DNA from: Nitrososphaerota archaeon
GTDB lineage: Archaea; Thermoproteota; EX4484-205; JAAOZP01
NCBI GenBank assembly: GCA_011605725.1
Contig: JAAOZP010000012.1
Coordinates: forward strand, 64,001-128,000
Length of the DNA stretch: 64,000 bases
Direction of reading: 5' to 3'
The translations under genes were made by a program, and so were the position numbers. Of this stretch, positions 60,635 through 64,000 are shown piece by piece. How positions within the stretch are numbered: the stretch's first letter is position 1; each line of letters opens with the position of its first letter. The notes beneath the pieces were generated by a model. It did no database searches. It was given only the letters and a program-made list of their open reading frames with translations, and was not told the origin of the DNA.

Positions 60635-61018
60635 TCAGCATGCTAGAAGCAAAGCGATAGCTATCGCAACGTCACTCGTCCTATCATGGCTTAAGCTGAT
60701 TAAAACTCTTCTAGCACCCTTCTCGCGGAGAAGATTGAGAAGCGGTTCACTCATAACTATTCTGACCTCCGAGTTGACCGTTTCAGTCTCAACACCCCTC
60801 CACCCTAGCCGGCTTCTGCTAGCATGACCTATGGCTTTGAAAACCGCCTCTTTGGCTGCAAACCTTGCGGCTAGCTTCTCGTAGGGACAGCCCGATTGAA
60901 AACAGTATTCAATCTCCCTATCTGTGAAAACCCTTTTTAGAAAACGTTCACCGCCCTTCTCTATAGCCTTCTTAACCCTGTTTATCGAAACAGCATCAAC
61001 GCCAACCCCGGTTATCAA
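60635..61018 (-). CDS. acpS: Holo-ACP synthase (AcpS-type 4'-phosphopantetheinyl transferase)
   Basis: GVGVD.V...R, RF..RVFT..E..YC, LAARFAAKEA..KA.G, ISLSH. Confidence 0.92.
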   Translation of the reverse strand: MITGVGVDAVSINRVKKAIEKGGERFLKRVFTDREIEYCFQSGCPYEKLAARFAAKEAVFKAIGHASRSRLGWRGVETETVNSEVRIVMSEPLLNLLREKGARRVLISLSHDRTSDVAIAIALLLAC

Positions 61019-61032
61019 GCCTATCTGAAAGT

Positions 61033-61278
61033 TCAGCAGCCTGCTTGAGCCAGCTTCCTCTTTATGTATTCAACAACCTGACCCACTGTCTGGTTTTTCT
61101 CAGCCTCCTCCTCAGGAATCTCCAGGTTGAAAGCCTCTTCGAAGGCTGCGATCAGCTCAACAGTATCTATTGACTCAGCCATAAGGTCGTCCACGAGAGA
61201 AGTGTCGTCCTTCAAGCTTTCAACACTAACACGGAAGTGTTCAGCTATAATCTTCTTAACCTTCTCCTCAACCGACAT
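61033..61278 (-). CDS. acpP: Acyl carrier protein
   Basis: EEKVKKIIAEH..DDLMAESIDTVEL..AFEE.F..EIP.EEAEK..TV..VEYI aligns by eye with bacterial AcpP; Ser36 attachment site. Confidence 0.9.
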   Translation of the reverse strand: MSVEEKVKKIIAEHFRVSVESLKDDTSLVDDLMAESIDTVELIAAFEEAFNLEIPEEEAEKNQTVGQVVEYIKRKLAQAGC

Positions 61279-61279
61279 T

Positions 61280-62560
61280 CTACATACCTCCTCGCTCCAT
61301 TCTCATCTCCGCCTTCCTTATTAAAGTTTCCCTCTCCTCTCTAGTGTCCTGATATATTTTCTCAAGCATCCTGACGTAGCTCTCCGACATTACGACAGAC
61401 CTTCTCGACATGACTCTCTTCTCCGCTTCAACAGTCCTTCTGAAGCCAGCACCCCTTCTCAACCTTCCTTCAGCATACCAAGAGAAGCTTGGAATATACT
61501 TGGGAAGAACCTCCCCGCCTAGGAGGACGCATGCTACTCCGACAACGGTTCCAGTGTTCAGCAGGCAACCTATGCCGAACTTCGTATGGTCTCCTATGAA
61601 GCTGCCAACCTTCAGGTCACCAGTATCCATTAACCTACCTTTCACGTAGACGTCGACATTACTGTAATCATTCTTAAGATCACTATTAGTAGTCAGGGCG
61701 CCGATGTTAACCCATTCACCAACGTAAGCATGGCCCAGGAAACCAGTGTGATACTTGTTAGAATAACCGTGGATGATGCTTGCCTCAACCTCTCCCCCAA
61801 CCCTGCAGACAGGCCCTATCGTTGTCTCCTCCCTTATGTTTCCACGGACAATCCAAGTATTCCTCCCAATGTAGCAGGGTCCTTCGACACGGCTGAACGG
61901 ATATATGCGTGCATCCTCGTCAACTATTATTGGGCCGGAGCTAGTGTCTAGAACAACGAAAGGATGTATAACTGCATTTTTACTAACGTGAAGCATACTC
62001 TTTTCTCCGACGACAGCAACCTTCTCGTCTAAGGATCCAGCCCCCTCCTGCTTAGACCAGTATGCTTCAAAATCCTCCTTCAGCATTTCGTGATTATACT
62101 GGATAAGGTGCCACGGGTATTCTACCATCCGGGCGTCAACCTGCTTAACGCTCAGCTCAGACCTAAGATTCTCAACAGTCTTCTGAAAAGTATCTGAAAG
62201 TTTTCTTCTAACTGTTTCCCTCTTGACGTGAATATATACTATATCATCCTTGCACATCGCGATGACCTCGTCTTTCTCAAACGGGAGATGGCCGTGCTCA
62301 GGAAGCCACCTACCGTTAACCAGAATAGCATCATCCCTACTCAGATCCTGAAGGCTGTTCACAACAACGTCTCCAAGCCTTTCTCTCAGAACAGGAGCCA
62401 AATAGTCCCTTAGGAAGAAAGAGGTCTCGACACCGGGATGAGTCCTCCTGATTCTTTCAACAAGCGTCATCGACCCGCATCTCAGCTCGAAAGTAGCTCT
62501 TGTAAGCGTCAACGGGTAGAGAAGGTCATACTTCTCATCCTCGAACACGCAGACCTTCAA
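61280..62560 (-). CDS. GlmU-related protein: degenerate nucleotidyltransferase N-domain plus left-handed beta-helix acyltransferase
   Basis: LYPLTLTR..FELRCG without the GxGxR motif; hexapeptide repeats; SNKYH.GFLGH.Y.GEWVN.GA.T.NSDLKN. Confidence 0.8.
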   Translation of the reverse strand: MKVCVFEDEKYDLLYPLTLTRATFELRCGSMTLVERIRRTHPGVETSFFLRDYLAPVLRERLGDVVVNSLQDLSRDDAILVNGRWLPEHGHLPFEKDEVIAMCKDDIVYIHVKRETVRRKLSDTFQKTVENLRSELSVKQVDARMVEYPWHLIQYNHEMLKEDFEAYWSKQEGAGSLDEKVAVVGEKSMLHVSKNAVIHPFVVLDTSSGPIIVDEDARIYPFSRVEGPCYIGRNTWIVRGNIREETTIGPVCRVGGEVEASIIHGYSNKYHTGFLGHAYVGEWVNIGALTTNSDLKNDYSNVDVYVKGRLMDTGDLKVGSFIGDHTKFGIGCLLNTGTVVGVACVLLGGEVLPKYIPSFSWYAEGRLRRGAGFRRTVEAEKRVMSRRSVVMSESYVRMLEKIYQDTREERETLIRKAEMRMERGGM

Positions 62561-62595
62561 TTCGCCTCACCACTGCCACAACATGGGATTCTTTT

Positions 62596-63807
62596 TTAAT
62601 GGTTTAATAAGTGTTTCCTAGTCTCCTCAGCTATAGCAAGCTCCTCATCAGTCGGTATAACTAGAACCTTAACCCTAGACTGCCTACTGCTTATCACCCC
62701 AGTTCTGCCCACTGTCACCCTATTCGCATCCTCGTCAATCATTAAACCTAGGAAACTCATGTTGTCACATATCATTCTCCTTATGAGAGGATCGTTCTCA
62801 CCTATCCCGCCTGTGAAAACAAGTATGTCGAGCCCACCCAACACTACGGTGTAAGCACCTATATACTTTTTAGCCCTGTAGGCAAAGATATCTAGGGCAA
62901 GCCTAGCCCTTTTGCTGCCAGCCTCAGCCTCCCTCTCCACATCCCTAATATCGTTGCTAACACCCGAGACACCAAGGAGCCCACTCTTCTTGTTAAGAAT
63001 GTCTTCAACCTCCCTGGGGGAGAAGCCCTCGCCGATCAGGTAGAAAACTATCGACGGGTCTATGTCCCCGCTTCTAGTACCCATGACCAGGCCTTCCAAC
63101 GGGGTGAAACCCATGCTAGTATCTATTGACCGTCCGTTTTTAATAGCGGTTATGCTGCAGCCGTTTCCGAGATGACAAGTCACCATCCTGAGCTTCTCAA
63201 GAGGCTTGCCAAGTATCTCGGCAGCCCTGTGAGCAACATACCTGTGGCTTGTCCCGTGAAACCCGTATCTCCTTATTCCGAACTTCTCGTAAAGCTCGTA
63301 AGGTATGGCGTAGAGATAAGCTGTCTCCGGCATAGTCTGGTGGAAAGCGGTGTCGAACACCGCTACCTGGGGGACTTTTGGAAGAAGGCTTCGCGCAGCC
63401 TCTATACCAGCTATGTTCGGAGGATTATGGAGCGGAGCCAGGTAAGCCCATTTCCTAAGGGCCTCCAGAACCTTTTCGTCGACAACCGTGGCTTCGAAGA
63501 AAGAATCCCCGCCGTGAACAACCCTGTGTCCAACTGCAACTATTTCCTCGAGTGAAGCAATAGCCTTCGGCTCAGCATCGAGGAGAACCCTGAGAATAAG
63601 CTCAAGGCCCTGCCTGTGGTTGGAAACATCAACCTCGCTTCTAGACACGATTCCACGAACCTCATGTTTTAAAACCGCCGGCCTGCTTCCGATTCTCTCC
63701 AGCAGGCCGCTGGCAACACCCGTCAATAAATCAGCGTCGAAAAGCTTGTACTTTATTGATGAGCTACCGCAGTTCACGACAAGTATTTTCCCCGGCAACC
63801 CTTTCAC
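62596..63807 (-). CDS. ackA: Acetate kinase
   Basis: [63 protein letters not shown]. Confidence 0.96.
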
Positions 63808-63998
63808 CCGGCTGACTGCGCTAGAACGGAGACAACAGCCATAGCTCCAACGATGTCTTCAACCTTAGCACCCCTTGAAAGATCGCTGACGGGCTTCTTG
63901 AAACCCTGGAGAATAGGACCGTAGGCTCCTGCTCCAGCCACGTGTTGAGTAAGCTTGTACGCTATGTTTCCAGCATTCAGATCGGGAAATATAAGGAT
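63804..63998 (-). CDS. pta: Phosphate acetyltransferase, 3' end (partial; continues beyond the window)
   Basis: Translated by hand: [44 protein letters not shown] overlap with the ackA start. Confidence 0.9.
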
Positions 63999-64000
63999 GT

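Follow-up and report, generated by a model that had tools for sequence, protein, structure and literature searches.

What does an acyl carrier protein (ACP) do in an archaeon? According to earlier reports, nearly all archaea lack ACP and its holo-ACP synthase, AcpS, and the archaeal copies that do occur have been discussed as bacterial-derived fatty-acid genes (PMC3533463; bioRxiv 10.1101/2024.07.05.601840). The question is raised by a stretch of 64,000 nucleotides from a Nitrososphaerota archaeon (contig JAAOZP010000012.1), called the window below. At its end, genes for an ACP and AcpS form an operon with genes for phosphotransacetylase (Pta), acetate kinase (AckA) and a protein resembling GlmU. 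A preliminary description of the window, made from the sequence alone, proposed that these genes encode a carrier-dependent acylation pathway. It would run from acetate or another short acid through acyl-phosphate or acyl-coenzyme A (acyl-CoA) to ACP, and from there to an amino-sugar phosphate or a glycan.

The operon is the archaeal form of a conserved, uncharacterized module: a dedicated ACP, a beta-helix acetyltransferase, either Pta-AckA or an ADP-forming ligase, and in most cases NagB. The module is undescribed and widespread, and its parts have known analogs in GlmU working with acetyl-ACP and in the chemistry of PlsX. On balance, we favor the view that it forms a self-contained route for the acetylation of amino sugars, in which a protein carrier replaces CoA and which runs in the forward, biosynthetic direction.

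An archaeal operon and the module it belongs to

The operon has the following features, in window coordinates.

63804..64000, minus strand: 3' end of pta (last 64 codons), module-type phosphotransacetylase; PF01515/TIGR00651
62596..63807, minus strand: ackA, acetate kinase, 403 amino acids; TIGR00016, 516 bits
61280..62560, minus strand: GlmU-like TIGR03991 protein, 426 amino acids; TIGR03991, 385 bits; His271 codon at 61748-61750
61033..61278, minus strand: dedicated acyl carrier protein, 81 amino acids; TIGR00517; Ser36 codon at 61171-61173
60635..61018, minus strand: acpS, holo-ACP synthase, 127 amino acids; TIGR00516, 62 bits

The open reading frames reproduce the tight, co-oriented arrangement first described: a 4-nucleotide overlap between pta and ackA, then gaps of 35, 1 and 14 nucleotides down to acpS. 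In a profile scan, AckA, the TIGR03991 protein, ACP and AcpS all score above their family cut-offs (225.3 bits for TIGR03991, 70.45 for TIGR00517 and 59.8 for TIGR00516). The Pta fragment matches PTA_PTB and is too short for the family cut-off; the complete gene, read from the host genome (G000), extends beyond the window and encodes 334 amino acids (C1:127804-128808). Reading on upstream of pta, as the preliminary description had advised, leads to a divergent DUF711-like gene that closes the operon there, and a convergent GxGYxYP gene bounds it downstream. A B recognition element and TATA box (BRE/TATA; C1:128833-128846) lies 24 nucleotides ahead of the pta start and is identical in six of six aligned genomes of the genus. 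Its position suggests an archaeal and probably leaderless transcript.

The operon genuinely belongs to an archaeon of the Brockarchaeia and is no chimera. In two independent assemblies from hot springs, window positions 56000-64000 lie on a single contig with at least 99% identity. The nearest named loci are Candidatus Brockarchaeota bins, where the block and its flanks are 75-98% identical, and codon use in the operon is native to the host (49th to 99th percentile). The preliminary description had seen a bacterial or chimeric contig as a threat to its reading. Chimerism and contamination are ruled out by the two assemblies that span the locus, the match of its flanks to Brockarchaeota, the native codon use and the conserved archaeal promoter.

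A role in the synthesis of fatty acids, polyketides (PKS) or nonribosomal peptides (NRPS) is also rejected, as no partner genes were found in the host or beside module ACPs. The earlier remark that the window lacks fab, PKS and NRPS genes holds genome-wide as far as tested. The host genome (93% complete) has a single ACP, profile searches of it found neither FabD (PF00698) nor PlsX (PF02504), and the ketosynthase family PF00109 gave a marginal match only; no other ACP-using enzyme turned up in these searches. Because the ACP is kept in a host without a recognizable fatty-acid synthase, the module is isolated and could be tested with five small proteins.

Linkage within the module was counted in 80 loci retrieved with a bacterial copy of the module ACP as query. 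NagB is encoded in 58 of them. The acetyltransferase slot is filled by TIGR03991 in 24 loci, by DUF4954 in 43 and by both in 1; the acetate-enzyme slot is filled by Pta-AckA in 37, by an ADP-forming acyl-CoA ligase in 24 and by both in none. This alternation means that two families can occupy each slot while the ACP stays constant. L184:7008-8993 is an example of DUF4954 standing in for TIGR03991, and 43 other loci are alike. A further gene, of the homocitrate/isopropylmalate-synthase family and resembling Re-citrate synthase, often lies beside the module ACP in Planctomycetota (L091:5619-7022, and 16 of the 80 loci). The host operon fits the definition of the module, with an ACP bearing the motif AES next to TIGR03991 and Pta-AckA.

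Bacteria with the module belong to Planctomycetota, Omnitrophota, Fidelibacterota, Poribacteria and other groups. An ACP match occurs in 20 of 401 Thermoproteota genomes, 19 of them in the module, and the ACP is found in 8 of the 17 genomes of the host genus. The Thermoproteota carriers are Brockarchaeia, Bathyarchaeia, Thermofilaceae and Wolframiiraptoraceae-type bins. Four Thermoproteota lineages have the module intact, with identities of 42-98%, so that gene order, on which the preliminary description had made its case depend, is conserved across archaeal genomes. Hadarchaeota and bins labeled Thermococci have a separate version. In the Wolframiiraptoraceae-type loci (L032:279-4938, L034, L280), ACP, AcpS and NagB are present, a nucleotidyltransferase and a galactokinase-family kinase are added, and pta-ackA is not adjacent; AckA has no match in one such genome (G291).

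How did the module reach these archaea? In our trees, which are midpoint-rooted and drawn from a sample biased to close matches, the Thermoproteota ACP-type acetyltransferases form one clade (support 99/99), apart from the ACP-free paralogs of Brockarchaeia (97/95) and within an unresolved group of bacterial sequences. The AckA and Pta trees, the former among the phylogenies called for earlier, broadly agree. These trees make it likely that the module entered from bacteria once and then spread among hot-spring archaea. The preliminary description had presented the pathway as new in archaea; the module is common among bacteria too, and they are its probable source. The literature that we searched, which covered few subscription journals, contained no description of the module, nothing on an ACP in Brockarchaeota, no paper naming TIGR03991 or PF13562, and incidental mentions only of DUF4954.

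Proposed acetyl transfer through the carrier

In the pathway that we propose, AcpS would place phosphopantetheine on Ser36 of ACP, and AckA would convert acetate and ATP to acetyl-phosphate. Module-type Pta would transfer the acetyl group from acetyl-phosphate to the carrier thiol, acting as a phosphate:ACP acetyltransferase. The beta-helix enzyme would pass it from acetyl-ACP to glucosamine-1-phosphate (GlcN-1-P), and a separate nucleotidyltransferase would convert the resulting N-acetylglucosamine-1-phosphate (GlcNAc-1-P) to UDP-GlcNAc. GlmS has no match in the host genome, and the glucosamine phosphate would therefore come from salvage or from NagB. This scheme draws on gene content, synteny, family membership, residue signatures and co-occurrence, which are observed; each enzymatic step, the sugar substrate and the direction are our proposal.

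The carrier itself is, by its sequence, a dedicated subfamily distinct from fatty-acid AcpP. It scores 82.8 bits to TIGR00517, Ser36 is invariant in 58 of 58 module ACPs, and the motif is AES where DSL is usual. In each of the four bacterial hosts checked, a canonical AcpP is encoded in addition, between fabG and fabF, and neither fabF nor fabG lies beside any of the module ACP loci examined. The preliminary description had offered a transferred block of the clostridial type, with pta-ack near acpP, as an alternative; the separate location of the fatty-acid gene and its difference from the module ACP rule this out. AcpS adjoins ACP in 25 of 27 archaeal loci, a set with some redundancy, as against 3 of 102 bacterial loci, and no other phosphopantetheinyl transferase (PPTase) was found in the hosts of the archaeal loci. 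We infer that AcpS is kept in archaea because the carrier needs modification and only bacteria have a housekeeping PPTase. Its retention points to a functional carrier in the archaeal loci, predicted to be phosphopantetheinylated. A different ACP, unrelated to the module and possibly misbinned, lies in a Thermoproteota bin between genes resembling an AMP-binding ligase and an Sfp-type PPTase (L281; G402 C136:7461-7670).

How is the carrier charged? Like Pta of Methanosarcina and bacteria, the module enzyme adjoins AckA and retains the catalytic residues (D309, S311, R312 and D318). It differs from them in falling into a clade of its own, marked by a basic and hydrophobic helix where the CoA nucleotide binds, and several bacterial hosts of the module have an ordinary Pta in addition. 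A single split (SH-like support 99) separates 74 module Ptas from 22 housekeeping Ptas of the same genomes. Residues 98-104 carry a net charge of +3.2 in module Ptas and 0 in housekeeping Ptas, and position 104 is Lys or Arg in all 74. Position 97 is hydrophobic in the module and acidic or polar in housekeeping enzymes; position 138 is Leu in the former and Gln in the latter. Work on the Porphyromonas gingivalis enzyme, which also gives the roles of active-site residues, identified Arg89, Lys92 and Arg135 as ligands of the CoA phosphates (PMC6461089). Of the equivalents in the host Pta, R88 and K91 are kept and position 134 is Lys; most module Ptas have lost the Lys equivalent to Lys92, and 45 of the 74 have Gln at position 134.

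A model of the Pta dimer with ACP places Ser36 and helix II on Pta residues 88-101 and 134-138, the very surface that holds the clade-distinguishing positions and the equivalents of the CoA-phosphate ligands. Its score is 0.63, against 0.00 for the best of three controls, which included neither a housekeeping Pta nor a fatty-acid ACP. Of 80 solved complexes, 58 reach the mark used for such scores, as do 2 of 110 mismatched pairs; these figures apply only roughly here. Contacts agreed between runs to at least 96%, and the predicted local distance difference test (pLDDT) was at least 87 for the partners. The model supports predicted binding of ACP at the CoA site; we know of no solved Pta-ACP complex. 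The chemistry has a parallel in PlsX, which forms acyl-ACP from acyl-phosphate on a Pta-related fold. The module protein differs in being a Pta-family member with no PF02504 match and with acetyl as its proposed substrate. For acetate linked to CoA, the host genome already has ADP-forming acyl-CoA synthetases, which favors our proposal.

The last enzyme matches TIGR03991 over residues 1-403 (385.2 bits) and falls short of the bifunctional GlmU profiles (23 of 366.85 bits for TIGR01173; 100.8 of 292.1 for TIGR03992). It consists of a degenerate nucleotidyltransferase domain, a left-handed beta-helix acetyltransferase domain and basic C-terminal helices. The preliminary description had noted correctly that it lacks GxGxR and keeps the acyltransferase signature. 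The PK motif is absent too, both motifs being replaced by FED...LYPLT in the protein and in the family consensus. The predicted structure (pLDDT 92.9) matches ST0452 best (E 1.8e-18), followed by bacterial GlmU. His271, invariant in 127 homologs, and Asn285, nearly invariant, are in register with ST0452. From its sequence and modeled fold, the beta-helix domain is a predicted GlcN-1-P N-acetyltransferase. Pairwise BLAST found no match between this enzyme and DUF4954; profile comparison indicates a distant relationship of DUF4954 to the TIGR03991 beta-helix (92%, E 5.9e-7).

TIGR03991 proteins also exist without a carrier. The family occurs in 25 of 26 Brockarchaeia genomes, and ACP-free copies are nearly universal there. 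At the level of clades the two kinds contrast: ACP-linked copies have K354 (invariant in 83), Lys or Arg at 369 and a C-terminal charge of +6.5, where ACP-free paralogs have Glu, Pro and +1.6. In the host the ACP-free paralog (G000 C6:42197-43438) has its catalytic His changed to Tyr and the SDLKN loop deleted, whereas module-less Brockarchaeia have it intact in the same gene context. Active-site residues have been lost from it in two lineages independently (G000, G007 and G016; G018 and G020). In G025, a genome 57% complete, a chimeric gene joins a housekeeping N-terminal half to an ACP-type C-terminal half (L132:8358-12604, G025 C2). It stands at the housekeeping locus beside a SIS-only deaminase-like gene, followed by acp and then an inverted acpS-ackA-pta block.

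Does any known system resemble this one? The Escherichia coli enzyme GlmU, a beta-helix GlcN-1-P N-acetyltransferase using ACP-borne acetyl, is the precedent. It binds ACP and favors acetyl-ACP as donor, with a Km of 20 uM for acetyl-ACP and 400 uM for acetyl-CoA; its carrier is the fatty-acid AcpP, and its acetyl-ACP arises from malonyl-ACP through the decarboxylase MadA (PMC8666670). That study left open how acetyl-ACP is supplied outside Proteobacteria (PMC8666670). The operon differs in its dedicated ACP, the proposed loading from acetyl-phosphate, the missing uridylyltransferase motifs and a host in which no fatty-acid synthase was found. ST0452/MJ1101 (TIGR03992) is the best match in sequence and fold (PDB 5Z09/5Z0A/2GGO), with the same two domains and the catalytic His and Asn aligned, whereas the operon enzyme lacks the nucleotidyltransferase motif and has extra basic C-terminal helices. 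To our knowledge, no ACP is linked to ST0452-type genes. The enzyme is itself a member of the alternative bacterial GlmU family TIGR03991 (PF13562), whose function is a prediction. With type II fatty-acid systems the operon shares the ACP fold, the attachment Ser and an AcpS-type PPTase; it differs in having AES for DSL, no fab neighbors, and a host in which FabD, FabF and PlsX were not found.

The ACP subfamily, the NagB synteny, the docking signatures and the E. coli precedent together support, by sequence and analogy, a putative carrier-dependent acylation of an amino-sugar phosphate. This much of the earlier proposal stands. Its acyl-CoA step probably does not, since Pta would charge ACP directly from acetyl-phosphate, and LpxA/LpxD, its model for the acyltransferase, is a poorer guide than GlmU with acetyl-ACP.

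Direction, donor and substrate

All steps are reversible in principle, and a forward role is more likely in the host archaeon. In several genomes that carry the module, the housekeeping acetyltransferase has decayed or been replaced in place, which points that way. So do about 10 bacterial hosts that have GlmS, no full GlmU, and TIGR03991 only as the module copy. NagA is present in the host and its relatives, so that de-acetylation is already covered. Neither GlmS nor a bifunctional archaeal GlmU was found in the host genome. Several points weigh on the other side. The host operon has no nagB, which lies on contig C20 (it is adjacent in the archaeal copies L034, L061 and L315). A study of Akkermansia judged that NagB is unlikely to aminate its substrate under physiological levels (PMC5902328); in Giardia, NagB is anabolic (PMC4281351). 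G008 has the module plus an intact ACP-free paralog, and at least four bacterial hosts have it plus a full GlmU. Within the genus ACP and GlmS exclude each other in 8 versus 8 genomes, a pattern that reflects one or two events, and absences were counted in incomplete metagenome-assembled genomes. The signatures of Pta and the acetyltransferase derive from clades, so they represent few independent events. The make-up of the docking controls also counts here, and because ACP helix II docks basic patches generically, generic docking may explain the model.

Could the same parts run mainly in reverse? The acetyl group of GlcNAc-phosphate would pass to ACP, to phosphate and to ADP, giving ATP, with NagB removing the glucosamine phosphate and the dedicated carrier separating an uphill step from acetyl-CoA, whose pool is high during fermentation. 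We consider this rather unlikely, although several observations are consistent with it. NagB, the commonest neighbor, is normally catabolic, and a NagR-like GntR/UTRA regulator, a sodium:solute symporter and a galactokinase-family kinase lie beside some copies. Both alternative acetate enzymes are of ATP-yielding types, some hosts with complete GlmS and GlmU still keep the module, and module-bearing Brockarchaeia have larger, sugar-rich genomes. Insulation from acetyl-CoA would benefit uphill de-acetylation more than downhill acetylation. The ACP/GlmS exclusion fits either direction. Against the reverse course are the NagA retained by the host and its relatives, the fate of the housekeeping acetyltransferase, and energetics: acetyl transfer from amide to thioester is uphill by about 15-25 kJ/mol.

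The donor and the substrate might also be other than we propose. If the acetyltransferase and Pta both use CoA, ACP and AcpS would serve another linked purpose, such as regulation or another acylation. The near-universal ACP-free copies in Brockarchaeia indicate that the family works without ACP, K91 and K/R134 are retained in archaeal Ptas, which may still accept CoA (a further point against our proposal), and at locus L040 an ACP-type enzyme adjoins GlmS although no ACP lies near. We nonetheless judge this improbable: linkage to ACP persists when either partner is swapped for another family, Pta and the acetyltransferase have parallel basic patches, the docking model occupies the CoA site, and the host searches revealed no other ACP-using enzyme. 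Still less probable is the transfer of a non-acetyl short acyl group, or LpxA/LpxD-like acylation of a UDP-sugar, glycan or lipid. The AckA and Pta families do include propionate and butyrate users, LpxA and LpxD are beta-helix acyltransferases with ACP donors, and the operon enzyme has weak LpxD profile matches. However, its LpxA/LpxD family score is 19.9 of 242.5 bits, its closest relatives in sequence and fold are ST0452 and GlmU, the genome has no source of long acyl-ACP, and module neighbors include no conserved glycosyltransferase or lipid gene. Hardly credible at all is the idea that the genes have no joint function, being an artifact of assembly or a bacterial block transferred passively. 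The genes are bacterial in type and patchy in archaea, as the sparse ACP matches attest; conservation largely refutes it, through the independent assemblies, the four lineages, the native codons, the archaeal promoter and the recruitment of AcpS specifically in archaea.

Two narrower ideas were rejected. That the module strictly replaces GlmS is true within the genus, through one or two events, but does not hold among bacteria, since many of them possess GlmS. Replacement of NagA is unsupported in archaea, where NagA occurs in both module and module-less groups. A bolder formulation can be offered only tentatively: the module may be a reversible, CoA-free acetyl shuttle with an ACP-specific Pta, which would let the cell either make GlcNAc with ammonium and acetate and no need of glutamine or gain ATP from the N-acetyl amide by substrate-level phosphorylation. 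If so, archaea would have a carrier-protein pathway unrelated to fatty acids, and Pta-AckA in Thermoproteota would mostly not serve acetyl-CoA fermentation. The orphan families TIGR03991 and DUF4954 gain a concrete function to test, with phosphate:ACP acetyltransferase as a candidate new activity.

Acetate kinase as a marker, and neighboring genes

Genes for pta-ack in Bathyarchaeia have been read as signs of acetogenesis or acetate use (PMC10321748), and Bathyarchaeon B24 is named in that context in another report (PMC6010159). Acetate kinase occurs in 18 of the 401 Thermoproteota genomes, and in 17 of these 18 it adjoins the TIGR03991 gene of the module; in B24 (G131) the only AckA found is the module copy. 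Pta-ack is thus a doubtful marker of acetate production in Thermoproteota. Acetate production is not disproved, since an ADP-forming synthetase could carry the flux. The sole sampled Thermoproteota AckA outside the module lies at a contig end (L329; G318 C29:3-1055), in a genome without TIGR03991 above the cut-off.

Other genes of the host touch on these subjects. The window encodes a two-subunit ADP-forming acyl-CoA synthetase (29508-31681), and a fused version lies at C7:387094-389214. Beside the operon, at 55076-60629, are three genes judged by eye to resemble uroporphyrinogen decarboxylase and a GxGYxYP glycoside-hydrolase-like gene, in an order kept across the genus. Elsewhere in the host genome, a 559-amino-acid open reading frame (G000 C1:206868-208547) matches both the ArgZ-like Rossmann and the SIS/GmhA-like genes that trail the module ACP in Phycisphaeraceae (L183, L201).

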